Origin: Candidatus Latescibacterota bacterium
Lineage (GTDB): Bacteria > Latescibacterota > UBA2968 > UBA8231
NCBI GenBank assembly: GCA_965206595.1
Contig: OZ242214.1
Span: 1 to 64,000, forward strand
DNA: 64,000 bases
Direction: 5' to 3'
The notes below the pieces were generated by a model, which worked only from the letters and a program-made list of their open reading frames with translations, was not told the DNA's origin and did no database searches. Below are positions 8,813 to 44,245 of the stretch, one piece after another; within the stretch, counting starts at the first letter, position 1, and the number at the start of each line of letters is the position of its first letter. The position numbers and the translations under genes were made by a program.

Positions 8813-10375
8813 GTGACCTCGATGGACGCTCCTTCCTACCACGTCGCGGTGATCGACCTCGGCTCCAACACCGCCCGTCTGGTGCTGATCGCCGCCATCC
8901 CCGGGTACTCGTACCGCCTGCAGGACGAGATCCGCGAGGTCGTGCGCCTGCGCCAGGGCATGACCAAGAAGGGGCTCGCCGAGGAAGCCGCGGCCCGGGC
9001 AATCTCGACCTTGAGGCTGTTCAAGCGGTTCTGCGAGAGCACCGGGGCCGATGTCGTGCTGTCGACGGCGACCAGCGCCGTGCGCGACGCCGCCAACGGG
9101 CGCGCTTTCGTGCAGCGGGTCCGCGACGAGGTCGGGCTCGACCTGCGGGTCCTCGACGGCGAGCGCGAAGCCTACTACAGCACGGTCGGCGCCCTGAACG
9201 ACGTCACCCTGCGCGACGGCGCAGTCCTCGACATCGGGGGCGGCAGCGTCCAGGTGAGCGAGGTGCGGGACGGGCGCTTCATCCGGGGAGAAGCGCGCAC
9301 CCTCGGAGCGCTCGCCCTGACCGAGCGCTTCGTGCGCACCGACCCGATCTCGGCGAAAGAGCGGAGGACGCTGGAGCTGGAGATCGAGGCGCAGCTCGAT
9401 TCGATACCGTGGCTCGGAAAGGCCGGCGCCCTGGTCGGACTGGGCGGGACCATCCGCAACCTCGCCAAGATCGAGGCGGCGAGGCAGCGCTACCCCCTCA
9501 ACACCCTGCACGGCTTCCGCCTCACCCGAAGCTCGGTCGACGAGTCGATCGGCCTCTTCTGCCGTTCCGATCTGAAGGCGCGGCAGGCCCTGCCCGGCAT
9601 CAGCCCGGACCGCGCCGACATCATCCCCGCCGGGGCCTTGGTGCTGGCCGCGTTTCTCGACCGCCTCGGCCTCGACGACTTGACGATCTCGGCCTGCGGG
9701 CTGCGGGAGGGGCTCTTCTTCGAGCACTTCTGGCAGCACCTGCCGTTTCCCGTCATCCCGGACGTGCGCCGCTTCAGCGTCCTCAACGTCGCGCGCAACT
9801 ACGACTACCAGAAGCAGCATTCCAACCACGTCCGCTACCTCGCCGGACGCCTGTTCGACCAGCTGGAACCGCTGCACGGGTACGGCGCCGGGGAGCGGGA
9901 GATGCTCGACGCCGCGGCCCTGCTGCACGACCTCGGCACCGTCATCGCCTACGCCGGCCACCACAAGCACTCGCAGACGCTGATCCACTACAACGGGCTG
10001 GCCGGCTTTTCACCGCGCGAGATCGCCCTGATCGGCCTGCTGGCGCGCTACCACCGCAAGGGCGCCCCCGATATCTCGACCTACGAGGCCCTGCTCGACG
10101 CCGACGACCTTGACATCCTCACACGGCTTTCGGCCATCCTCCGCCTTGCGGAGAACCTCGAGCGCGGCCGCAACGGTGTCGTCGACGACGTCATCGTCAA
10201 CTGGGGGGACGACTACCTGAGGCTGACCCTGATCGCCGACGATTACCCCGCGGTGGAGCTGTGGGAGACCGAGCGCAACGCCCTGCCGCTGGTGGAGCAG
10301 GCCTTCGGGCGCAAGGCCCTGGTCGACAGCATCGCCGCGCCGGGGGAGTGGCCGCAGCACCGCCCAGGGGCGTAA
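8813..10375 (+). CDS. ppx: Ppx/GppA exopolyphosphatase
   Basis: 'VIDLGSNT', 'ATSAVRDAAN', 'DIGGGS', 'GLREG', C-terminal HD domain 'LLHDLG'. Confidence 0.92.
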   Translation: MTSMDAPSYHVAVIDLGSNTARLVLIAAIPGYSYRLQDEIREVVRLRQGMTKKGLAEEAAARAISTLRLFKRFCESTGADVVLSTATSAVRDAANGRAFVQRVRDEVGLDLRVLDGEREAYYSTVGALNDVTLRDGAVLDIGGGSVQVSEVRDGRFIRGEARTLGALALTERFVRTDPISAKERRTLELEIEAQLDSIPWLGKAGALVGLGGTIRNLAKIEAARQRYPLNTLHGFRLTRSSVDESIGLFCRSDLKARQALPGISPDRADIIPAGALVLAAFLDRLGLDDLTISACGLREGLFFEHFWQHLPFPVIPDVRRFSVLNVARNYDYQKQHSNHVRYLAGRLFDQLEPLHGYGAGEREMLDAAALLHDLGTVIAYAGHHKHSQTLIHYNGLAGFSPREIALIGLLARYHRKGAPDISTYEALLDADDLDILTRLSAILRLAENLERGRNGVVDDVIVNWGDDYLRLTLIADDYPAVELWETERNALPLVEQAFGRKALVDSIAAPGEWPQHRPGA

Positions 10376-26352: not shown

Positions 26353-26428
26353 GGCCCGTTCGTCTAGAGGCCCAGGACGCCGGCCTCTCACGCCGGTAAC
26401 ACGGGTTCGAATCCCGTACGGGCTACCA
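26353..26428 (+). tRNA. tRNA-Glu (CTC)
   Basis: Cloverleaf; anticodon arm CCGGC-CTCTCAC-GCCGG; GGTTCGAATCC T-loop; CCA end. Confidence 0.97.
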
Positions 26429-29130: not shown

Positions 29131-30036
29131 TCATGTCAGCGCCGGGGGGCGAAAGACCTCTTTCCCATGCCACTTCACGAACCTGGGGTCGGGACCCAGA
29201 CAGCGGTTCCGAGGCGACCGAAGCGGCTTGTCGTGGTAGTCGAGAAACCAGCGAACCGGGGCGCTGAGGCCGTGGACTTCGCTGGAGACCAGCACCTTGT
29301 AGCCCCCCGCCTCGACCGGTTCCAAACCAAAGGCTCCCCGGTCGAACGCCTTGTGGTGCAGCCCGCACAACGCCAATCCGTTCGCGACCTCGTCCGGACC
29401 TCCGGCGGCATGCCACTTGATGTGCGCCGCTTCCAGACCGATCAACTCATTCCCCAGACGCACGTCGAAGTCACAGACGGCGCAACGGCGCTGGTACTCG
29501 CGCAGAACCTCGTCGCGGAAGGCCGGGTCGCGCCTCGGAGGAAGGGGCGCATCACGCGCCACCCAGGTACGTGGGATTCCGACGGCATCGCGGATCTCAT
29601 CGTGCAGGGATTCCGGGAAGTGCCCGTCCAGGAGTCTTTGCGCTGCCTCTCTCCCCAACTCCGGCCGGTTGCGGAGCAGGTCGTACAGCGGCTCTGGAAA
29701 ACCGCCCTGCACTCCACGCTCGCGCAGATCCCGAACTCGAAGATCTCCGCTCGCAGTGCGGGACAAGGTTTCCCTCTCGGGGATCTCCCAGAGTTCGTCG
29801 GCGGGCAGGCGGCCAAACGGGAACTCCGGATGCCACGCCTTGCGGGGCGGACCGAAATTTTTCAGGAGGTCCGTAAGCCGGCTCTCGATCTGCATGTAGG
29901 CAGCAAGTCGTTCCCGCTTGCCGAGGACGCGCCCGAGCGCCAACAGCAGCAGCAGGGGTTTGTGCGGCGCGCGTTCCCCGCGTCGTTGCCAGACGTTGAT
30001 GCGCTCGATTTTCTGCAGAAACTCGTCGCGATTCAT
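29131..30036 (-). CDS. SBD-HNH endonuclease (phosphorothioate-DNA-binding restriction nuclease family)
   Basis: N-term 'RAPHKPLLLL' and 'PEFPFGRL' resemble the sulfur-binding domain; C-term HNH 'CAVC...LEAAHIKWH...NGLALCGLHHKAFDRG' intact. Confidence 0.8.
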   Translation of the reverse strand: MNRDEFLQKIERINVWQRRGERAPHKPLLLLLALGRVLGKRERLAAYMQIESRLTDLLKNFGPPRKAWHPEFPFGRLPADELWEIPERETLSRTASGDLRVRDLRERGVQGGFPEPLYDLLRNRPELGREAAQRLLDGHFPESLHDEIRDAVGIPRTWVARDAPLPPRRDPAFRDEVLREYQRRCAVCDFDVRLGNELIGLEAAHIKWHAAGGPDEVANGLALCGLHHKAFDRGAFGLEPVEAGGYKVLVSSEVHGLSAPVRWFLDYHDKPLRSPRNRCLGPDPRFVKWHGKEVFRPPALT

Positions 30037-30177
30037 CGATCAGTAAGAGGGCGAGATCTGGGCGTATCGTCAAGGTTACACGGAGAAGGTTTTCTTGGAA
30101 TTGATGACGGGGTCTGGGAGGTGAGGGTTCGGTCCCCTCAGAGACTGGGCCGCATGGATTCGATCGGTTCTGCAACC

Positions 30178-30993
30178 CTACAAATGACACACGGCACAAC
30201 CTTCGGCTAGATCTGGCGCTGGGATCTCCTCCCGCTCCGGCAGCTCGGCAATCCTGAGTAGCGGCCGTCCGTCGACCCAGGTATAGCCCCGGTCTCCGGC
30301 GCTATCCTGTTCGTACCCCATTGCTTTTTCGAAAAGATCGGGGTGCACCTCCTTGAGGTTCTGCCATTCCCCGACCTGCTGGTAGAAACAGAAGTAACAG
30401 CCGGAACGGGACCGCCAGCGGTAGTAGCCGGGCAACCCGATGCCTGATTCGGTCAGAATTCGCTTGATGTCCTCAAGGATCATCCCCGCGTCCTTGAAAG
30501 GGTACACGGGCAGGATGTTCGGCCGCTGCGAAATCACCGGTGGCTTCTTCGATTGGTACCCCTCCCTGTCCTCGTCGCCGCGGATCCCGATGTAGCTGAA
30601 CGCCTGGCTGTCGCCGACGAAGCGTTCGAACGGCTGAATCTTCAGCACCCTCGTGCACCACCTCGACCGCGGATTCGGCAGGAATCCGCCGTAGAGCTCG
30701 TTCAGATACATGTCGAAGGGATTGCGCCCGGGCTTCCTCGCGACCTTCAGGTCGTCGAGGGCATTGAGCCGCTTCACCTCCACGCCCAGGAGAGCTTCCA
30801 GCCGTTCGAGGTACTCGTAGGTTTCGGGCAACTCGCAGCCGGTATCGCAGAACACGTACTCCGCCCTGATCTCCGGGAAACTCTGGCGCATGTACAGGGC
30901 GAGCGCGGTCGAGTCTTTACCTCCTGAGATACTGACGATATGGCGGATGCTCTTGTCGGACAGGCTTTCCAACGCCTCTTGCATGCTAGCCAT
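30178..30993 (-). CDS. sspD: PAPS-reductase-family protein (SspD-like)
   Basis: PP-loop 'SGGKDS', 'DTGCELPETY', 'RWCTRVLK', 'GIRGDE', 'RSGCYFC'; operon context. Confidence 0.82.
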   Translation of the reverse strand: MASMQEALESLSDKSIRHIVSISGGKDSTALALYMRQSFPEIRAEYVFCDTGCELPETYEYLERLEALLGVEVKRLNALDDLKVARKPGRNPFDMYLNELYGGFLPNPRSRWCTRVLKIQPFERFVGDSQAFSYIGIRGDEDREGYQSKKPPVISQRPNILPVYPFKDAGMILEDIKRILTESGIGLPGYYRWRSRSGCYFCFYQQVGEWQNLKEVHPDLFEKAMGYEQDSAGDRGYTWVDGRPLLRIAELPEREEIPAPDLAEGCAVCHL

Positions 30994-33900
30994 CGAGCGA
31001 TTCCTCCGTCCTCTTTTGCCGAATTACGGACAGCCTCCTCTCAGCTTCCCCCTCGCCGACGAGATCGACGAGCCTGGCGAACAGTTCATCAATTCGGCCC
31101 TCGACGAGTTTCGACAAACCCTGAGCGGCGCTGCTGTCCTCCAACAGGCCGCTACGGTCGAGCGCCGACTCCTCGATCTGCTGCACGGTGGCCTGCAGCT
31201 CGCGCTCGAAATGCGCGATGGTGGTGTCGTCCCACCTGGCGAGCGGCTGACCGACGAGTAACGTGGCGAGGGAGTCCGCGAGCTTCTCGTCGGACCTGTA
31301 ATTCATCTGCATGATCTTCAGCATGCTCGTGGTCGTGCTCGCAGTGCCCATCTTCTCCACGAAGCTCTGGGTAAAGCAGCCCGCCCATTCCCTGGCCACG
31401 ACCTGCAGGCTCTCTCCCTGATCGCGATCCCCCAGGCGTATCGCCCGCCGGACCGCCGCACCCACCTGCTGCGCGTAGATGCGAGTGACATCCATCAGCT
31501 CCTGCTTCGCCGCCTCTATGCCTCCCAGTGCTTCACTGGTCGCACGGTCCTCGCCACCGAGGCGGGGCAGGTCCTGCAGGATGAGGCGGACGGGGTCCCC
31601 CCCCTTGCGGATGAGTTGCTGCAGCTTCTGGCCGGCGGGGGTCAGCTGACGGGTGGTCAGGGCGGCTGCCGGCAGCTGTACCTTCCATGCCTCCAGGGCG
31701 TCGTGGCAGAGCCGGACCAGGTCGGCCTCCGGGGCTTCGTACTCCGGACCCGCAGGGAAGATGCGATGCAGGCCGCGCAGGTATTTTTCGCTCTCGTCAT
31801 CCAACTCCAAGACACTGACACGGAAACGGTCCGGCTCTCGGCACAGGCTCTCGATAACGGAAGGCAGGATGTCGGCCACGTAGGCCCCGTCCTTCATCAG
31901 GGCCAGGGCGCTCGGGAACGCCTTGAGCCCGGAGGCAAGCAGGATCGGCAGCAAACCTTCCCGCACTCCATGGGGCGGCTCCATCAACTTGTGCAGAAGC
32001 AGGCGAGGGTCCTTCGGCGTCGTGCTCGGCTCGGTGAGGAAGACCTCGACTTCCTTCCACACCTGCTTCAGGCCGGGGTCCTCGAGCTCTTCCGGATCCG
32101 CATACCGCCAGCGGCCGTTGTCCTGCCGGTAGAGCCCGGTGTGAAGCAGCACGCACCGGAACATCGACGAATCAGGGAAGTTCCCCTCGATGCCTAAGCC
32201 TTCCATGCCGGACCGTTCCAGGATCCCGAGCATCAGCTTCTTGCGGGCGTTCACCACGACCGCGGAAGGACGGTGCCTGACGATCATCTCGTTGTTGATG
32301 CGGGGGCAGTGCCCGAACACTTCCTCCATGATGTTCGACAGCGCCGTCCGCAGGCCGCGGGGGGAATCGGCTCGCCGCATCGGCTTACCCTTGTGGAACC
32401 ACCGCGGCCCATCGAAACCGGGCCAGACCAGCCGGTCCAAGAGCTGTTGCAGATGGCCTTGGGCGTCGTCGGTCATTTGCTGCAGCTCCGGACCGACGAG
32501 AGGATCGGCCCCGACAAGCTCGCTGTCGGTCTGCATCCTCAGCAGGCACCAGACCTCCAGGGCCGCCTCGCGGATCGGCAGCGGTTCCCGGGGCAACGCC
32601 ACCACGATCCTGTCGGCGTTCAGGTCCGACCGAACCGCCTGCTCGGCCTGCGAGATCTCCTCGTGGCTTTCCGCAAGGACGTACAGCACCTCTCCATCCG
32701 TGCCGGGATCGAGCCGCCTCAGGTACTGGTCCTGTCTAAGGGATTCGGGAAGGGTCGCTACGCACTCGTAGCGGCCGGCCAAGTATCTTCGGACGCAGCG
32801 CTTGGCGTTGTACTCGACGGGGCGCCAAGCGGGCGGCCTGGCTTCCTCGCTGAGGAACCCCAGGCCGTCGAACTGCTCTACCTGCCTGCGCTTCTCCTCC
32901 TCAAGCCTTCCCCGCAGGTCGACATCGGTGCCGTGCCATACCGCCACTTGGTCGCTGTGGCGGCGGTGGAGCAGCAGTTTGCGGTCGACCAGTCGCTGGA
33001 CGACATCCGCCTCCGAATCGTCACTGGCGTATCCCTTGAGCGCGAATCGCAGCAGGCCGTGGCCGGCGCGCGAGCGCTCGCCGCTCGCACCCAGACTGAG
33101 CAGACAGGCTGCCTTCAGAGCCTTCGTCTCCGCTTCGTCGGTAACCTTCGTCAACGCGCTCTCCGTCTCGAGCCACTGGCGGTAGGTGCCGCCAACCGAA
33201 GTGTCCGACCTCATCACTGGGGCGAAGTAGTCGTACAGGGCGGCCGGTCCGACCTCCCCGTCCATATCGACCGCGTAGAGGAAGCTGAACAGAGTGCGCT
33301 CGTTCTGAGCCACGCGCGCAGCCAGGCGGGGCAGCAGGTACAGCGTCACGGGTTCGAGGGGATATGCCCGGTGAAGCACCTGCTGAATCTCCAGGAGGGT
33401 GGCTTCTCCGAACAATCCATGAGTCTGGCATTCACGGGCTGCCCTGAGCGCAAGGGGCCCCGCCAGCTTCTTCCTGCCTCTGCGCGAAGCCACTACCTCA
33501 GAGACGAGCCGGTAGATCTCCTTGCTCTCATCGACGTACTGCAGGGTGCGGAAGCGGCCTTCGATCTTGGTCCACTCCGAACGGACCGACTGCGTCATGT
33601 TCCCCGCGTACTGGAGCAGGCTCTGATGGAGGAACAGGCCCATCGTCGCCGGCACCCCCCTGGGGCGGCTGACGAACTCCGCCAGCACCTGGATTTCCCC
33701 CAGTGCGGAAGTCCGCCCTTCGTTGAGGAGGGATTCGAGGTGCCTCCCGAACTCGTCCCACAGCAGGACGACCTGGTCGCACCCACACTCCCCCGCTTTT
33801 TTCTGCAAAGCGGCAAGCACGTCCTCCAACGCGCCCGGCCCCTCAGTATTCAGCCCCTCGATGGGCTTGGCTTGGCGCCCAAGTTTCAACCGCTTCATGC

Positions 33901-34324
33901 TCAGAACCGCGGCATCCCGCAGCGCCTCGGCGACGTTTGGGCGGTACCCGTGGAGAGCCACAACGACTCCCCGCTGTTTCCGGTTCCTCCCCCTTCTTTT
34001 CACGGAACGCGCCAGTTCCGGACTGACCGCTTCGAGACGGTCCGCTATCTGCCCCAGGGAACCGGCGACCTCCGGCCTGTTCTCAATCACCTGCAGGGCG
34101 TAGGTCGCCGTCAGTGACTTCCCGCTTCCATATGGAGCCACGACGAAATAGGTGCGCTCCTCCTCTTCGCCGATGAGAGCCTTGAGCAGGGGCACCGTCT
34201 TGGCAGTGGGCCGGAAGTGGGCGATCCGCTCCGGCTCGTCGGCGTCGTAGACGATGTTAATCGACCGCAGAAATGCGTCCTGCGAGGCAGGCTCGTTCGA
34301 CACGGTTTTCCTTCTACGCTGCAT
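30986..34324 (-). CDS. sspC: Large P-loop ATPase (SspC-like)
   Basis: Walker A 'APYGSGKS', Walker B 'LLWDEFG', 'AQNERTLFSFL'; lies between DUF4007 and PAPS reductase genes. Confidence 0.8.
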   Translation of the reverse strand: MQRRRKTVSNEPASQDAFLRSINIVYDADEPERIAHFRPTAKTVPLLKALIGEEEERTYFVVAPYGSGKSLTATYALQVIENRPEVAGSLGQIADRLEAVSPELARSVKRRGRNRKQRGVVVALHGYRPNVAEALRDAAVLSMKRLKLGRQAKPIEGLNTEGPGALEDVLAALQKKAGECGCDQVVLLWDEFGRHLESLLNEGRTSALGEIQVLAEFVSRPRGVPATMGLFLHQSLLQYAGNMTQSVRSEWTKIEGRFRTLQYVDESKEIYRLVSEVVASRRGRKKLAGPLALRAARECQTHGLFGEATLLEIQQVLHRAYPLEPVTLYLLPRLAARVAQNERTLFSFLYAVDMDGEVGPAALYDYFAPVMRSDTSVGGTYRQWLETESALTKVTDEAETKALKAACLLSLGASGERSRAGHGLLRFALKGYASDDSEADVVQRLVDRKLLLHRRHSDQVAVWHGTDVDLRGRLEEEKRRQVEQFDGLGFLSEEARPPAWRPVEYNAKRCVRRYLAGRYECVATLPESLRQDQYLRRLDPGTDGEVLYVLAESHEEISQAEQAVRSDLNADRIVVALPREPLPIREAALEVWCLLRMQTDSELVGADPLVGPELQQMTDDAQGHLQQLLDRLVWPGFDGPRWFHKGKPMRRADSPRGLRTALSNIMEEVFGHCPRINNEMIVRHRPSAVVVNARKKLMLGILERSGMEGLGIEGNFPDSSMFRCVLLHTGLYRQDNGRWRYADPEELEDPGLKQVWKEVEVFLTEPSTTPKDPRLLLHKLMEPPHGVREGLLPILLASGLKAFPSALALMKDGAYVADILPSVIESLCREPDRFRVSVLELDDESEKYLRGLHRIFPAGPEYEAPEADLVRLCHDALEAWKVQLPAAALTTRQLTPAGQKLQQLIRKGGDPVRLILQDLPRLGGEDRATSEALGGIEAAKQELMDVTRIYAQQVGAAVRRAIRLGDRDQGESLQVVAREWAGCFTQSFVEKMGTASTTTSMLKIMQMNYRSDEKLADSLATLLVGQPLARWDDTTIAHFERELQATVQQIEESALDRSGLLEDSSAAQGLSKLVEGRIDELFARLVDLVGEGEAERRLSVIRQKRTEESLDG

Positions 34325-34595
34325 GGAGACCCTTCAAATCCCGCATGAGCCCGCCGCTCGACGGCGAATCATCGCTGCCCGGGGCGCCCTTTCGATGCCG
34401 CCTTCCCGAGACTTGCTCGCACAGGCCGGCCGCCTGAAGCCAATACCGGATCGACTTGGCCATGTTGCGGCCCACCCCGAGCCAGTCGGCAACGTGCTCG
34501 TCGACGAGCTTCTCGGGCTCTTCGACGACGAGCTTCAACCCTTTGTGCAGCCACCCCTCCCGAACGGGGAAGGTCTCGTGTCCGCCGAACCTCAT
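34314..34595 (-). pseudogene. sspB: DUF4007 (SspB-like) protein truncated to 93 aa
   Basis: 'FGGHETFPVREGWLHKG...LGVGRNMAKSIRYWL' is the DUF4007 N-terminus; ATG overlaps sspA stop; rest of the domain absent. Confidence 0.82.
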
Positions 34596-35776
34596 TCCGC
34601 CACCTCCGAAAGCTCCATGCGGCTTGTGTCTCTCCAGTCCGAAAACGCCCTGATCCGGGCGGCTACGTCCGCTACGGCCTCGGCGGCAGCGGCAACCTCC
34701 TCCTCGCTGTTCAGCACCGACATGCTGAAGCGGACACTTGCGTACGCCTGCTCTTCCGACAGTCCCATGGCCCGCAGCACGTGCGACGGCTCCGGCCGGT
34801 GGTTGGTGCAGGCCGAGCTCTGCGAGCACCGGATCCCGCGCTGGTCCAACCGGGCTACCAGGGCCTGTCCGTCCACCCCGTCGAAGAGCAGGTTCGTCGT
34901 GTTGCACACTCGGGTGGCGCGCCCCCCGTTCACGGACACGCCGGCGCACCGGTCCATGACCTCGCTCTCGAACAGATCGCGCAGCCTGCCGAGCTTGGTG
35001 ATTGTTTCGGGGTGAGAGCCTGCGCGTATTCCGGCAGCACACCCCATGCCGGCGATCCCCGGCACGTTCTCGGTGCCCGCCCGCAGGCCCGACTCCTGGT
35101 CGCCGCCGTCGAGAAGTCCCCTGAGCCCGGCGCTGCCGCGCAGGTACAGAGCCCCTGTGCCGGGTGGACCGTGGAACTTGTGCCCGGCAATCGACGCGAA
35201 GTCGACCGGGAGTTTCCGCAGATTCACCGGCAGCTTGCCGACTGCCTGGGCCGCGTCCGTGTGGAACGGCACCCCGGCTTCCGAGCAGATCCGCCCGAAC
35301 TCCGCGACCGGTTGGACGACCCCGGTCTCGCTGTTCACCCATTGAATAGATATCAGGGCGGTTTCCCCGACGATCGCTTCCCGCAGGTCGTCCGGATCGA
35401 CGGTCCCGCTTCTGTCGACGGGGAGCAGCACGACTTCCGAACCTTCACGCTCAACCCGTTCGAGAGCGGCGAGGACGGATGAGTGTTCGGCTGCGGTCGA
35501 AACGATCCTTTTCCCCGGCCCGGAGAAACTGCGGATGACGGTGTTGTTCGCCTCGGTGGCGCCGCTGGTGAAGATGATGGAGTCGGGCTCGCATCCGATA
35601 AGAGAGGCCAGCGACGACCTGGCGTTGCGCAGCTGCTCGCGCGCACGGTCGCCGGCTGCATGGCTGCTGGAGGGATTGCCGAACGCCCCGCCCATCGCCT
35701 TCAACACGGCGGCGCGAACCTCGGGCAGCGGCTGAGTCGTGGCGTTGTTGTCGAGATAGATCTCGGAGGGCTCCAT
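34592..35776 (-). CDS. sspA: Cysteine desulfurase (SspA/IscS-like)
   Basis: 'YLDNNATT', 'FTSGATEANN', 'HTDAAQ', 'GHKFHGP', 'SSACT'. Confidence 0.9.
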   Translation of the reverse strand: MEPSEIYLDNNATTQPLPEVRAAVLKAMGGAFGNPSSSHAAGDRAREQLRNARSSLASLIGCEPDSIIFTSGATEANNTVIRSFSGPGKRIVSTAAEHSSVLAALERVEREGSEVVLLPVDRSGTVDPDDLREAIVGETALISIQWVNSETGVVQPVAEFGRICSEAGVPFHTDAAQAVGKLPVNLRKLPVDFASIAGHKFHGPPGTGALYLRGSAGLRGLLDGGDQESGLRAGTENVPGIAGMGCAAGIRAGSHPETITKLGRLRDLFESEVMDRCAGVSVNGGRATRVCNTTNLLFDGVDGQALVARLDQRGIRCSQSSACTNHRPEPSHVLRAMGLSEEQAYASVRFSMSVLNSEEEVAAAAEAVADVAARIRAFSDWRDTSRMELSEVAE

Positions 35777-36209
35777 GCTCAGGGACTGGAGATTTGCAGA
35801 TGAGAGATGGGTGTTGCGGATCGGAAAGCGAGGCAAGGTCCGTCTGGTCTCAGGTGCGAACAAAAACGAGGCCAGGTTTCGTGGAGTGTCGAACAGTCCA
35901 AGCCGGGGACCCTGGGAGATTTCAAGAGGTTTTTCAAGCCCTGATCTGTGTCCTAACCTATCCCGAATGTTGGGGGATGGTCAAGCGAATTCCCAAGATG
36001 TTGGGGTTCCTGCCGAAAGAGCACCAAGGGCGTAGCCGGTTCCGTTCGATCGTGGATCTGTTCCCTTACGGTCGCAGTAACGGCGGCTATTTGATACAGC
36101 TAATATACTGAACAAAAGTGCACATTGGCAAGGTTTGGAGCCTGACAAGGAGCCTGACAATAGATGAGATTTTCTCGGGGCAACCGGTCCATTCCAGTCC
36201 GCGACTCCT

Positions 36210-38036: not shown

Positions 38037-39209
38037 TTGCAACGTCCAACAATGCTCTCGGCAACCTTCGTGCGATCAGTTAGCCAGCCGGGCCGATACG
38101 GCGACGGCCGTGGAGGGTTTGGGCTCTCGCTGCTGGTGAAGTTGAGGGAAAACGGGAGGCTGTCGAAGACGTGGAGCCAGCGGCTTCGGATCGACGGAAA
38201 AGTAACCAACGTCGGCTTGGGTTCCTGGCCTGTCACGACGCTCAAAGAGGCTCGGGAGAAGGCGTTGGAGAATCGTCGGGAAGTTGAGCATGGGGGTGAT
38301 CCCCGCGAACGCATCGCCCGCGTTCCGACGTTCGCGGAAGCCATCGAAAAGGTGATTGCGATCCATGAACCGTCATGGAAGGACGGAGCCCGATCTGGCG
38401 AAATCTGGCGGTCGTCTCTGCGCGACTACGCGATGCCGCGGCTCGGAGGAAAGCCAGTGGACAAGATCACGACGGCCGACGTGCTGGCCGTGTTGGTGCC
38501 GATCTGGAGCACGAAGCGGGAGACGGCGCGACGTGTTCGCCAGCGGATCGGCGCGATTTTGAAATGGGCGGTCGCGCAGGGATACCGCGACGACAACCCG
38601 GCCGGCGAGGCCATCGGCGAGGCACTGCCGAAAACCGGCTCTCCGAAACAGCACCAACGGGCGTTACCGCACGCCGAAGTAGGGACGGCGGTGCGCAAGG
38701 TGCGGGGGTCGAAGGCGTGGTGGGCGACGAAAGCAGCCTTCGAGTTTCTGACGCTGACGGCGGCGCGCTCGGGTGAAGTCCGGGGGGCGCGGTGGGAGGA
38801 GATCGACTTCGAGACGGCGACCTGGACGGTGCCGGGGGAGCGCATGAAGGCGGGCCGACCGCATCGGGTGCCGCTGCCCCGCCGAGCCCTCGAGGTGCTG
38901 GCCGAGGCGCGTGAGCTGGCTGACGGCTCCGGGCTGGTGTTCCCGAGCAGTGTGCGCGGCAAGATGCTATCGGACATGACCCTCTCCAAGCTCGTCAAGC
39001 AACTCGGCATCGAGGCGGTGCCGCATGGGTTCCGAAGCAGCTTCCGCGATTGGGCCGCGGAGTGCTCGACCGCGCCGAGGGAGGTCCGCGAGCTAGCATT
39101 GGCACACGTCAACAATGATCGGACGGAAACGGCGTATCGGAGGAGCGATTTGTTCGAGCTGCGGCGGAAACTGATGGAAGATTGGGGAGCTTACTTGGGC
39201 CGAAGGTAG
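38037..39209 (+). CDS. P4-like tyrosine integrase with arm-binding domain
   Basis: 'YGDGRGGFGL', 'GLGSWP...TLKEARE'; catalytic R (ARSGE), HGFR, LAH, AY. Confidence 0.92.
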   Translation: MQRPTMLSATFVRSVSQPGRYGDGRGGFGLSLLVKLRENGRLSKTWSQRLRIDGKVTNVGLGSWPVTTLKEAREKALENRREVEHGGDPRERIARVPTFAEAIEKVIAIHEPSWKDGARSGEIWRSSLRDYAMPRLGGKPVDKITTADVLAVLVPIWSTKRETARRVRQRIGAILKWAVAQGYRDDNPAGEAIGEALPKTGSPKQHQRALPHAEVGTAVRKVRGSKAWWATKAAFEFLTLTAARSGEVRGARWEEIDFETATWTVPGERMKAGRPHRVPLPRRALEVLAEARELADGSGLVFPSSVRGKMLSDMTLSKLVKQLGIEAVPHGFRSSFRDWAAECSTAPREVRELALAHVNNDRTETAYRRSDLFELRRKLMEDWGAYLGRR

Positions 39210-39225
39210 TGATCTATTGGTAGAA

Positions 39226-40605
39226 CTGGACTTTTGCAAACTCCGCTTTTTTACTAAAGTTTCAGGTGTGCGACAATTCGCTGCTCTGTCCACCCTATTG
39301 TGGTTTGGTCCACTACCCAGGTGATGGTTTTGCTGAGCGTTTCTCGCGACACGGCTCGACAGGCTTCGCCAATGGTCGTCAGCACGGTGTGAGCCCAGTC
39401 ACGCGCACGGCCCTGCCGCATCCGTGCCCTGAGCAGACTGTGCGTCAGCATCACGAGGTACCTATGCCGGGTCTGGCCCTCGCCGCTTTTGTAACTGACC
39501 GTCTCCCATGCCCAGATGGTGCTTGCCGTCCCGATGAAAAGTCTCGGTGCCCGTCCAGCGTTTGCGATAAACATTCAGAATACGACTGATCTCCCAGTGC
39601 ACGCGATTGGTCAGTAGAAACTTGACCGCTTCCCTGCCGTTCTTGCGATCCCACAGGATCACCAGGCGAACCCGGTGCTTTAGCTTGGGCAGACTCAGGG
39701 TTTTGGTGAAATACCATTGTTTGCGCTTGCCGATGCTGACCTGTTTGCGATCCTCGGGCGGGATATTCGCAGCCACTTCGGCGGCCTTCATCAGGCCGCC
39801 CTTGAACTCGACCTTGCGGTTGCTCTTCAGGGCTCCTACGTAGCCGCGCTCATGACTATGGATGTGATCGAGACACTCGACACTGCTGAAGTAGCAGTCG
39901 AAGGCGAAATCACCCGGGATCTGGCGGAAAACGACCCCGTCCACCAGCTCTTTGAACAGCTCGGTATGGCTCTTGAAGGAGGTGTCCGTCTCCCCTTCCC
40001 GGCGCTTGCGAAAACGACGGAATTCCATCGGATAGTATTTCCCCGAGGTGCACACGTAGTTGGCGATGACGTAATCGTGCGCAATCCTATGGCGCTGGTC
40101 GGAGTGATCCCAAAACCAACCCACGTCCTCGATCTTGTCTCCGCTGTGGCCGACCAAGGTGTTGTCGATGGCGATCACCCCGCGCCCCGAATAGCGCGTC
40201 GAGGGACGCTCCTGCAACCATTCCAGGCGGTGTTCGTTGAGCCATTTCCCGTGCCCATCGCACCTGCGTAATCCAGCGGTTCAGGCAGGACTGATCGGTG
40301 GTCTCGACGAACTCGGCGTTGATCGCCGATACATGTTTGCGTTCGGCCACCATCAACCCGGTCAGATACTCGCCAAAGTGACGGCGCTCCGGGGCGTTGG
40401 CGAAGAGGCCGCCGAACTCTGCCACCGCGTCTTCAACCACCGTGGGAAAATCAACAATACCTGGCATGAACAACCTCTCACATGGCCAGGGGAAACGAAG
40501 GCGGGGGATGCCTTCGTCCTACCAAAAATACCGAGTTCCATCGAATTCGCGCTACCCTCTATCCTTGCCGATTATTCAGGAATTCTGCCTTTTGCAAAAG
40601 TCCAG
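39226..40605 (-). mobile_element. IS701-family IS, transposase frameshifted into 3 ORFs
   Basis: Perfect 15-bp IRs CTGGACTTTTGCAAA at 39226-39240 and 40591-40605; 'YLTGLM', 'VIAIDNT', 'FDCYF', 'ETFHRDGKHHLGMGD'. Confidence 0.85.
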
Positions 40606-40620
40606 ATGTACCATTGGTGT

Positions 40621-40950
40621 ATGGTCAATCTGACCGACATGCAATGGCAACGAATCCGCCATCACTTTCCTGAAGAACTTCGTCCCAAGAGCCATCCGGG
40701 TCGCAAACCGGTTTGCACCCGTGATGTTTTTGAAGCCGTCCTTTGGATTCTAAACACCGGGGCTCAATGGCATATGTTGCCGCCGTGCTATCCGAACTAC
40801 AAAACCGTGCATCGCCGTTTTCAAAACGGGTGTCGTCAAGGGGTGGTACGCGAAGTTCTCATGGACCTGGCCCAGACCCTTCACGAGCAAGGGGGTCTGG
40901 ACGAATCGGAGGCTTTCATCGATGGCCTGTTCTCGGCGGCCAAGGGTGGA
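40621..40950 (+). pseudogene. IS5-family transposase N-terminal fragment (DUF4096)
   Basis: 'LTDMQWQRI', 'VLWILNTGAQWHMLP', 'TVHRRF', 'AFIDG...AKGG', then breaks off. Confidence 0.82.
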
Positions 40951-41066
40951 GGACGCCGCCGCCAACCCCACCTTCCTCTTTGCCGAACCGCGCGTCGGCT
41001 ACCGCATGCCCCAAGGGACAGGAACCGGAACCGTGACCGCGACCGGGGAAGCCACAGTTGAAGAAA

Positions 41067-42239: not shown

Positions 42240-43934
42240 TTACCCGCTGAGCCGCTCCTCGAGCAGGGCCGCCGCTTCCCCGTGCCCCTCCTTCTCCGCC
42301 CGGCAGAGCGGCTGCGCCCAAGGCGACTGCGCAGGCGCGGCCGGATCGGCGCCCTGTTCCAACAGGAACCGCACCATCTCCGCCTGCCCCTTGCGCGCCG
42401 CAGCGGCCAGGGGCGTGCCCCCGTATTCCAACTCGACCGCCTCGATATCGGCTCCCAGCTCCAGAAAGACGCGGGCGGCGGCGACATCCCCCTTTTCCGC
42501 ACAGCCGTGCAGGAAGGTGCGGCCGATCCAGTTGGCGCGCCGCATGTCGACGCCGCGGTCGGCCAGGGCGCGAATCGTAGGGGGGTCCGAAGGGTAGTTG
42601 CCGCCCCAGATGTCGGTCAGTTGGAACAGCTCTCCCGCATTCGGCACGGTTTCCAGGAAAAGGCCGATGAGCGCAGGCTTGTCCCGTCCCATCACCTCGT
42701 GCAGCAATTGCGGGTCCGCAACCCCCTCTTCCCCTTCGCGCAGGGCCCGTTCCAGCTCGGCATCGTCCATGGCATAGGAGGGGGTCACCGCTCCGTGCTC
42801 GCGCAGCAGGGCCTGCATCTGCCGGCCCTGCTCGCCGTGGTTGTACTCGACGATGGTCAGGCAGGTGCCGGAAGAGTCCACTCCGGCGTTGGGATCGGCG
42901 CCGCGTTCGATCAGCAGTCTCGCCGTCTCCAGGTGGTTTCCCGCGGAAGCGCCGAACAGTGCCCCGCCGCGCGGCGCGAGCTCCTCCGGCCGGTTGGGAT
43001 CGGCACCGAGGTCAAGCAGTTTTTCGACGATCCGGGTATGGCCGTTGCGAGCGGCGCAGGAGAGCGGGCTGCGTCTGCCGGCATCGAGGCCGCGGGCCTG
43101 GGCAGGATCGGCCGCCAGCACCGCATCGACGCGGGCTTCGTCTCCGGCAGCGCAGGCGATGCTCAGGGCGTACTCCGCGCCGCAGGCGAGCAGATGGCGG
43201 GTGACCATCCACGAGTCTTGCGGGGCTTCCGGCGGCAGATTGCGGGTCCGGTACCAGTAGTCGCCGTTGAGGGAGACCAGCAACGGAGTCTGGCCGTCGG
43301 CGCGGCGGGCTTCGAGGCCGGCGCCCCGTGCGACAAAGAGATCCACCAGGTCGTTCTGCCGCGTCAGCGCCGCCCAGTGCAGGGGCCCGTTGCCCAGCGC
43401 GTCCGCGGCGCGGATGAAACCGGGATGCTCTCCCAGCACCGCTTCGACCCGGGCGCGGTCGCGGCCCTTGATCGCCTCGGCCAGCGCGACAAATCCCGGA
43501 CCGTAACCGAAGCGCTCGCGCATCGCCGTCGCCAGCAGCGCCTGCACCTCCCTGTAGCCGCGCTCCTCGCTGATAGCCAGCAGCTTGTCCCACGAGTTGT
43601 AGGTATAGCGCGACTGGCCCGGATCGGCCCCTGCCTGCAGCAGCAGTTCTACCACCTCGGCATGGTTCTCGCGCACCGCCATGTGGATGGGAAACTGGTA
43701 CCAGTACTGGGCGTTGACCAACCTGGGGTCGCTGTCGAGCAGGGCGCGGACCCGCTCCAGATCTCCGGCGCCGCTGGCGCAGAAGAGCTCCCAGGCCCGG
43801 TTCCCGTCCACCGGCTCGATCCCGCACTGGTAGCTCTCCGTCTTCATGCCTTCCGGCTGCAGCAAACGGGCCATCCGTTGCGCGAAACGCTCGCCCGGCG
43901 ACTGGGCCTGCGGCTGCGATTTTCGTCCGGTCAT
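42240..43934 (-). CDS. Ankyrin-repeat protein
   Basis: Multiple 'PLHWAA', 'TPLAAAARKG...LLEQGADP' repeats. Confidence 0.9.
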   Translation of the reverse strand: MTGRKSQPQAQSPGERFAQRMARLLQPEGMKTESYQCGIEPVDGNRAWELFCASGAGDLERVRALLDSDPRLVNAQYWYQFPIHMAVRENHAEVVELLLQAGADPGQSRYTYNSWDKLLAISEERGYREVQALLATAMRERFGYGPGFVALAEAIKGRDRARVEAVLGEHPGFIRAADALGNGPLHWAALTRQNDLVDLFVARGAGLEARRADGQTPLLVSLNGDYWYRTRNLPPEAPQDSWMVTRHLLACGAEYALSIACAAGDEARVDAVLAADPAQARGLDAGRRSPLSCAARNGHTRIVEKLLDLGADPNRPEELAPRGGALFGASAGNHLETARLLIERGADPNAGVDSSGTCLTIVEYNHGEQGRQMQALLREHGAVTPSYAMDDAELERALREGEEGVADPQLLHEVMGRDKPALIGLFLETVPNAGELFQLTDIWGGNYPSDPPTIRALADRGVDMRRANWIGRTFLHGCAEKGDVAAARVFLELGADIEAVELEYGGTPLAAAARKGQAEMVRFLLEQGADPAAPAQSPWAQPLCRAEKEGHGEAAALLEERLSG

Positions 43935-44245
43935 CCGCGGAATCCCCTTCCTTTTTCCGAGGCGCCTCCCGGGCAGGTATGAACCTCGACCGCTACATGC
44001 ACGAGGCCGAGGTCCCCGGGAATGCGCTCCTTGTATTGCCCCGGCATCGCGGGACGGTGAGCCACGACGGCGATCAGCGCCGAATAGATATCCGGACCGA
44101 TGGACCACAGGTGGAGGTCGGTGACCTTGCTGTCGCCGTCCTGCTCGATGCTGTGGGTGATCCTGTCGCGGATGGATTCGGGACCCTGCCTGTCGAGCAG
44201 TATGTCGCTGGTGGTCCGCAGCAGGCCGAACGACCAGCTGGCCAG
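43931..44245 (-). pseudogene. C-terminal fragment of a DmeF-like CDF metal transporter
   Basis: 'WSFGLLRTTSDILLD...VTDLHLWSIGP...LVHVAVEV'. Confidence 0.7.

Follow-up and report, generated by a model that had tools for sequence, protein, structure and literature searches.

In the usual picture of phosphorothioate (PT) modification of DNA, a PT writer with its effector treats the mark as a sign of self, while nucleases with a sulfur-binding domain (SBD) stand alone, treat PT as foreign and avoid the loci of writers. The SspABCD-SspE system was reportedly presented by Xiong et al. in 2020 and the SspABCD-SspFGH system by Wang et al. in 2021 (PMC8092258). Here we analyze a locus at positions 29131 to 35776 of a stretch of 64,000 nucleotides (contig OZ242214.1, positions 1 to 64,000, assembly GCA_965206595.1; hereafter the window) from a Candidatus Latescibacterota bacterium, which shares with both systems the gene families and their order, sspA, sspB, sspC, sspD, with an effector slot after the modification genes. 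It differs from them in that its sspB is a 97-codon stump, that its genome yielded no match to SspE or, with a model that was silent in control genomes as well, to SspF, and that the effector slot holds an SBD-HNH protein, an enzyme of a type known to cut PT-containing and not unmodified DNA. This protein resembles SspE as a PT-sensing domain coupled to an HNH-type nuclease.

Among the closest described enzymes are those of the SprMcrA/EcoWI type (Lutz et al. 2020, PMC7461809), with which the window protein shares the two-domain architecture, the SBD fold, the HK and xP motif of the sulfur-binding cavity and an intact HNH domain; it differs from them in being encoded in line with ssp genes and in having Phe in place of the cavity Tyr. 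PMC7461809 puts the share of SBD-HNH genes located near dnd or dnd-related clusters at below 3.6%, and gives mutation of those clusters as a possible reason. We found no description of SspABCD paired with an SBD-HNH protein in the literature, although ssp cases may already be among those of Table S4 of the same paper, which covers SBD-HNH genes close to dnd-related ones. ScoMcrA (SBD-SRA-HNH; PDB 5ZMM/5ZMO) has homologous SBD and HNH domains, and a protein with winged helix-turn-helix (wHTH), SAD and HNH domains, which occurs often in Dnd loci and is perhaps the real restriction partner there according to Rakesh, Aravind & Krishnan (2024, PMC10853773), is likewise a PT reader-nuclease beside a PT modification module. 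Unlike these two, the window protein has 301 amino acids and no SRA/SAD domain, its neighbor is Ssp and not Dnd, and the modification module beside it and its relatives is mostly incomplete. Hga (SBD + PD-(D/E)XK; PDB 8H0L; Hu et al. 2023, PMC10602919) is another SBD-guided nuclease, but it has a different nuclease domain and is only a distant structural match to the window enzyme.

We read the locus as a canonically disabled Ssp writer that adjoins a self-contained PT-dependent Type IV nuclease, placed in an exchangeable slot 3' of sspD, and we give this reading about an even chance of being correct. The view that the locus in the window works as a new kind of Ssp effector system, which had been put forward in a preliminary description of this DNA, is not supported; most of the ssp loci that bear an SBD-HNH gene have incomplete writers.

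The ssp genes and the nuclease

All five genes lie on the minus strand, in the order and at the coordinates given in the preliminary description, and PADLOC assigns the names sspA, sspC and sspD to three of them. The sspA gene (34592..35776, 394 aa) encodes a cysteine desulfurase, with a full-length match to the PADLOC SspA model (6.3e-124) and to Pfam Aminotran_5 (4.7e-71). The sspC gene (30986..34324, 1112 aa) encodes an intact BrxC-like ATPase, residues 17-1052 of which align with positions 4-1050 of the 1054 in the PADLOC SspC profile (3.9e-154). The sspD gene (30178..30993, 271 aa) encodes an intact sulfurtransferase of the PAPS-reductase family (PADLOC SspD, 1.9e-90; Pfam PAPS_reduct), which keeps the motifs SGGKDS, RWCT and GCYFCF and the C-terminal CxxCHL. 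Consecutive ssp genes overlap by 16, 11 and 8 nt, and sspD is separated from the nuclease gene by a spacer of 141 nt read directly from the sequence (30037..30177, minus strand), previously given as about 140 bp; in the sister loci L002 and L012, described below, the spacer has 39 nt.

The DUF4007 gene, previously taken for sspB, proved to be a stump of 97 codons (34314..34607, minus strand), which matches only positions 1-70 of the 293 in the PADLOC SspB model (4e-33) and 1-67 of the 288 in Pfam DUF4007; its first ~70 residues alone are DUF4007, and the tail is out-of-register sequence. Comparison by blastn with the intact sspB of L012 (302 aa) revealed that the window lacks about 600 nt, corresponding to L012 positions 8240 to ~8838: the homology ends at window position 34382 and restarts at 34347, and the deletion junction is annotated at 34337..34380. 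This junction is bridged by contigs of four sequencing runs (X4, X7, X8 and X9) from three studies, which differ from the window by ~1.8% near the junction, and in none of which an intact allele was seen; the best-matching run is possibly the source sample itself. The sspB deletion is fixed in the species.

The genome, a single contig of 7.05 Mb with an estimated completeness of 92.9%, was the scope of the gene searches given next. It contains no second SspB, the stump being the sole match, and no SspE, since the SspE models reach no further than the initial ~100 residues in eight DUF262 proteins, the best families of which are HEC-05, HEC-06 or Orf5. The earlier claim that sspE and sspFGH are missing can thus be extended to the whole genome for SspE, while SspF gave no match with the above-mentioned model and SspG and SspH were not searched for. 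DndC, BrxP and members of the DndB family (PF14072) were not found in the genome either. As sspBCD is described in a recent survey (PMC12914056) as the minimal set for PT synthesis, the loss of sspB means that the writer is disabled here in canonical terms, and PT is probably absent from the DNA of this organism. The paradox of a writer encoded beside a nuclease that attacks its mark, which had made the locus seem puzzling, does not apply to this genome.

The gene that follows sspD (29131..30036, minus strand, 301 aa) matches NCBIfam NF045808 ('phosphorothioated DNA-binding restriction endonuclease') with 309.8 bits over positions 2-284 of 284, the curated cut-off being 180 bits. Its N-terminal part, a winged-helix SBD of approximately residues 1-155 (29572..30036, minus strand), is similar in phmmer searches to the SBDs of ScoMcrA (8.6e-12) and SprMcrA (5e-7). 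In an AF2 model (predicted local distance difference test score 87.7) the N-terminal half superimposes on the SBD of ScoMcrA in complex with DNA (5zmo_A; Foldseek TM-score 0.82, root-mean-square deviation 2.2 Å, E 1.3e-8), followed by 7ccj_A (TM-score 0.79) and 8h0l_A, the structure of Hga (0.66). The C-terminal half, comprising the HNH domain at approximately residues 170-301 (29131..29529, minus strand; Pfam HNH_2, 4.5e-11), resembles in the model the HNH enzymes TagI, VcaM4I and McrA, and its motifs CAVCD, EAAHIKWH and NGLALCGLHHKAFD agree with the family consensus at invariant or nearly invariant columns. No SRA (SAD) domain was found between the two, as Pfam gives HNH_2 alone and the structural matches cover only the SBD and the HNH domain. 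The ratio of non-synonymous to synonymous substitution rates (dN/dS) of the gene is 0.12 in comparisons between sister species.

The cavity that accommodates sulfur in SBDs is characterized by HR or HK and by YP, according to PMC7461809. The window protein has the HK, within a PHKP motif present in 75 of 81 homologues, and has FP in place of YP; the Tyr position is occupied by Tyr in 42 and by Phe in 11 of the 81, and Phe would retain the hydrophobic character of the site. To judge from its sequence and modeled fold, the protein belongs with ScoMcrA, SprMcrA and EcoWI in the PT-dependent Type IV family, so that the identification of an SBD-HNH protein with an intact HNH domain stands, and it would be expected to cleave DNA in a PT-dependent manner with a sequence preference of its own.

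Sister loci, adjacency and the order of events

The closest homologues of the nuclease, with 91, 82 and 79% identity, are encoded in three metagenome-assembled genomes (MAGs) of Latescibacterota (loci L002, L012 and L003), all with the same co-oriented arrangement, and a quick tree of the nuclease groups the window, L002 and L003 with 97% support. The writer is damaged in each of them, by different lesions. In L002, where sspC is intact as it is in the window, sspB carries a separate deletion of 474 nt together with a frameshift and a stop. In L012 and L003, sspB is intact; the former has an internal deletion in sspC, as well as a 1-nt deletion in the nuclease gene, while the latter lacks sspC and has an IS630-like open reading frame (ORF) at the junction. 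The end-points of this sspC deletion are common to L003, L108 and L109, the last two of which carry other nucleases after sspD, a NOV_C protein in L108 and an HNH_4 protein in L109.

The Ssp proteins track the grouping of the species, with the window, L002 and L012 in one genus and L003 and L108-L111 in another. Between the window and L003, synonymous divergence (dS) is 0.93 for the nuclease gene, 0.93 for sspD and 0.70 for sspA, and dN/dS between the sister species is 0.03-0.08 for sspD and ~0.2 for sspA, sspB and sspC (0.19 for sspC against L002). From the similar depth of divergence of the nuclease and ssp genes and the species-like grouping of the latter, it is most likely that the common ancestor had sspABCD and the nuclease together. 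The nuclease came first and the writer was lost later, lineage by lineage, in at least four separate hits. The suggestion that the nuclease was a replacement acquired after the decay of the system therefore came closer than that of a new effector, but with the order of events reversed.

The position 3' of sspD is an exchangeable slot for effector or nuclease modules. We fetched 20 regions around SspD from the window's own family, out of 51 SspD places listed; 17 of them are ssp loci without SBD-HNH and three belong to genomes G198 and G205. Among the former, sspD is followed in L111 and L105 by a protein of 420-457 aa without a known family and then by a DndB-family protein, in L095 by an AAA_23 ATPase with a DndB-family protein further on, and in L107, L101 and L104 by a helicase with HATPase and PLD proteins; NOV_C, HNH_4 and an insertion sequence with a methylase make up the other contents found in nuclease-free loci. 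G198 and G205, compared with their sister G213, have an effector region of 8.9 kb swapped for 0.9 kb of an SBD-HNH gene that belongs to another branch of the family, between conserved flanks (a TonB-dependent receptor gene and rsmB), and have lost 1970 nt of sspA-sspB by a clean deletion, so that only sspC-sspD-HNH are kept. This is a second, independent replacement.

The pair composed of the 420-457-aa protein (without Pfam or PADLOC family) and a DndB-family protein (PF14072) of ~410 aa follows ssp genes in several phyla (L111:7377-9874, L105:6209-8675, L076:593-3205, L128:15097-17613 and L125:3136-4776), and DndB-family genes also occur near ssp in L095, L098, L099, L101 and L102. It appears to be a common type of Ssp partner, unmatched by the SspE and SspF models tried. 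In the window as well as in L002, L003 and L012, the region downstream of the nuclease gene was searched for remnants of it, and none was found.

We examined the loci of the best 80 of 512 relatives of the nuclease. Eight of them have ssp genes within the fetched flanks, and a ninth, L020, has them ~12 kb away; further adjacent cases are G198, G205, L123 (Poribacteria) and L128 (Acidobacteriota). In all, 13 loci, spread over several phyla, have SBD-HNH adjoining ssp genes, and in the quick tree these cases are scattered over at least five separate positions. The linkage, which might have been peculiar to one genome, is thus kept in three sister species and recurs elsewhere. The nuclease gene is co-oriented after sspD in the clade of the window, in G198/G205 and in L123, divergent from sspB in L050, L076 and L128, and convergent in L060 and L011.

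Nuclease-ssp adjacency goes with damage to the writer. With sspBCD regarded as complete when each gene yields a single match of nearly full length that is free of frameshifts and internal stops, it is complete in four of the 13 nuclease-adjacent loci (L050, L076, L128 and L123, all with intact nuclease motifs) as opposed to 22 of 26 nuclease-free ssp loci, a comparison between interrelated loci that we ourselves chose to fetch, in which some frameshifts in MAGs may be assembly errors. A count of co-occurrence with an intact sspB had been proposed earlier; it confirmed that the linkage recurs, although mostly with an incomplete writer. The nine incomplete adjacent loci are those of the window, L002, L012, L003, G198, G205, L060, L011 and L055. 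L060 has only sspD and a fragment of sspA, L055 is rearranged, in a MAG without sspD, and in L011 sspB is split between two frames at a poly-G run (L112:13600-14600, on the same contig as L011). Of the nuclease-free loci, four fall short: sspC is missing from L108 and L109 and carries a stop in L119, and in L110 sspD is interrupted by a stop close to its end.

Several of these loci have peculiarities of their own. The poly-G split in L011 may reflect a genuine frameshift, phase variation at the tract or a mistake in the assembly; the nuclease gene of this locus is separated from sspA by PbeA-like and PbeC/DndD-like genes, and the motifs of the nuclease are degenerate (EAVYIKWP, HQGAFD). L050 encodes two tandem SBD-HNH paralogues (L050:10001-11853) beside a complete sspBCDA, the second of them with altered HNH motifs; this paralogue and the L011 protein are the cases of degenerate nuclease motifs. 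L123 has a Gp49-like toxin gene, accompanied by small partner ORFs, inserted between sspB and sspC (L123:15415-16513) and another 1.4 kb of small ORFs between sspC and sspD. In L055 the first 142 codons of sspB are copied beside SBD-HNH, with 89% identity to the complete gene at a distance of 6 kb (L055:2244-2669 and 8872-9807), with an AriA/HEC-01A-like ATPase and a mad2-like gene in between, which suggests a rearrangement of the ssp cluster or an insertion into it.

Three simpler regularities were considered and rejected. At the level of whole genomes there is no enrichment that could serve as evidence of coupling: SspD occurs in 19 of the 80 nuclease-carrying genomes (in one of them weakly), against a baseline of 44 of 168 for the phylum. 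Within the phylum it occurs in 8 of 15 genomes with the nuclease and in 36 of 153 others, these genomes being related to one another, and a published survey finds sspBCD in ~3% of genomes in general. The idea that an intact writer always entails an inactivated nuclease is contradicted by L050, L076, L128 and L123, which keep the motifs. The retention of SspD in 12 of the 13 adjacent loci is not a significant signal either, as it is about what gene size predicts. Several genomes (G213, G219, G117 and G130) have two ssp clusters each.

Weighing the readings

If the locus is a disabled writer with a self-contained nuclease, the adjacency would have arisen by replacement of the cognate Ssp effector with SBD-HNH, and the writer genes would then have been lost piecemeal. 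The SBD would bind incoming DNA at a phosphorothioate, close to which the HNH domain would cut, the nuclease acting alone and independently of the neighboring ssp genes. As the genome has no complete PT writer, no self-damage would be expected, and since SspD was found in more than a quarter of the phylum genomes (44/168), a PT-reading nuclease has many targets in this community.

Several observations weigh against this reading, besides the limits of the adjacency count given above. The adjacency is tight and recurrent, and in several orientations, which would also fit a functional partnership; complete sspBCD is paired with a motif-intact nuclease in four loci; and the ancestor kept writer and nuclease under purifying selection for a long time, with dS up to ~0.9. 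A simple 'dead writer' also does not predict purifying selection on the remaining ssp genes. Since the sspC deletion common to L108 and L003, however, dN/dS between these two has been 0.22 (sspB), 0.23 (sspA) and 0.03 (sspD), with dS in the range 0.29-0.48 and with open frames, and no SspC was found anywhere in the genomes of L003, L108 and L109. Similarly, among strains with the sspB deletion of the window, synonymous and non-synonymous differences number 15:4 in sspC and 10:6 in sspA (from the 40 differences listed out of 293). Purifying selection after the loss of a partner suggests that the leftover ssp genes still matter. A prediction of a complex between SspD and SBD-HNH gave no support and no verdict, and is counted neither for nor against.

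The strongest alternative, though in our opinion an improbable one, is that SBD-HNH is or was a true Ssp effector analogous to SspE, in which the SBD senses host PT and controls the action of the HNH domain on invading DNA, with the window representing a recently disabled copy. SspE itself is described as a PT sensor fused to an HNH-type nuclease (PMC9646914), and the proposal of a wHTH(SBD)+SAD+HNH protein as an alternative Dnd restriction partner extends to 698 taxa in PMC10853773. The co-orientation right after sspD in three lineages, the 13 adjacent loci, the failure to find another effector in this genome, the long-lived ancestral combination and the loci L123 and L050, where complete sspBCD and the nuclease occur with no DndB-type module in view, all speak for such a role. 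On the other hand, where the nuclease occupies the slot, six of seven loci have an incomplete writer, while the nuclease is intact in six of the seven; L076 and L128 have their own module of the 420-457-aa and DndB-family proteins, so the nuclease there is an extra; and in eight genomes a complete ssp cluster coexists with an SBD-HNH gene at an unlinked site, a ninth, L119, having the stop in sspC mentioned above.

We consider somewhat less probable again a conflict between writer and reader, in which SBD-HNH reads PT of the Ssp type and its carriers are selected to lose the writer, so that 'PT marks self' turns into 'PT marks foreign'. This would account for the contrast between four of 13 and 22 of 26 complete writers, for the four or more separate knock-outs in the clade of the window after the arrival of the nuclease, and for the same outcome reached independently in G198/G205. 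Hga is the one characterized case of an SBD nuclease that binds CpsCA and restricts an ssp cluster, that of V. cyclitrophicus, 10-fold, with a cavity that lacks Tyr (PMC10602919), so a clash is possible for the Phe-bearing SBD of the window as well; the Tyr position is non-Tyr in 8 of 11 ssp-adjacent proteins, whereas about half of all homologues have Tyr. Against this, the SBD of SprMcrA does not bind CpsCA according to Table 1 of PMC7470945 and to PMC9521924; L050, L076, L128 and L123 combine complete sspBCD with a motif-intact nuclease; the genomes that encode close relatives of the nuclease (68-72% identity; L005, L007 and L008) also have complete ssp clusters at other sites; and the ancestor tolerated the writer and the nuclease for long.

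Finally, the reduced cluster might still work, either with SBD-HNH, a winged-helix protein with a nicking-capable HNH domain, in place of SspB, or with SspD and SBD-HNH as a minimal module to which the other genes are accessory. Purifying selection, on sspC and sspA where sspB is gone and on sspA, sspB and sspD where sspC is gone, points in this direction, as do the near-constant presence of SspD beside the nuclease, the sets left in G198/G205 and in L060, the description of SspB as a multi-wHTH DNA-binding component (PMC10853773) and that of SprMcrA truncated in its SBD as a non-specific nicking enzyme (PMC7461809). We regard it as quite unlikely, because no single substitution covers both the sspB-less and the sspC-less loci, SspD is retained about as often as random loss by gene size would give, and we found no published support for PT synthesis without sspB or sspC.

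Surroundings of the locus and its significance

In a simple consensus scan, the sole promoter-like site of the scanned region lies upstream of sspA (36102..36131, minus strand; 10/12, a pattern match only), and no promoter-like or terminator-like site was found in the 141-nt spacer. On the side of sspA there is a tyrosine integrase gene (38037-39209, plus strand; Pfam Phage_integrase, Phage_int_M and Arm-DNA-bind_3), which together with ORFs of IS4/5-type transposases (Pfam matches including DDE_Tnp_1 and DUF4096) occupies 38037..41061, and GC content drops to 0.58-0.61 at 36-42 kb of the window. On the other side, a tRNA-Glu gene is located at 26353-26428, 2.7 kb past the nuclease gene; a direct repeat of its end, sought as an att-like mark of an integration site, was not found.

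Further away, at 42240-44108 of the window, a protein of 622 aa consists nearly entirely of ankyrin repeats; such proteins are often reported in animal symbionts. The sequencing runs that contain DNA of the window include sponge and coral metagenomes, at small shares of query words only. The DUF262 (GmrSD_N) proteins mentioned above are encoded at eight sites of the genome (L082-L089) and are of the HEC-05 and HEC-06/Orf5 candidate-defense types, which makes the genome rich in candidates for modification-dependent nucleases.

The purifying selection on partial sets of genes calls into question the assumption that sspB, sspC and sspD serve only jointly. It is also what would be explained, together with the near-constant SspD beside the nuclease and the placement of the nuclease in line with the operon, if SBD-HNH were built into the Ssp chemistry itself, as a DNA-binding nicking subunit in lieu of SspB or as a partner of SspD in a two-gene PT module of writer and reader, an idea to which we assign only a slim chance. 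More generally, reader and writer of the PT mark are joined physically here, and have been joined repeatedly in several phyla, and where they are joined, writer genes tend to be lost. A causal link, if there is one, would mean that a defense locus may reverse the meaning of its own epigenetic mark, or be taken over by the reader of that mark.

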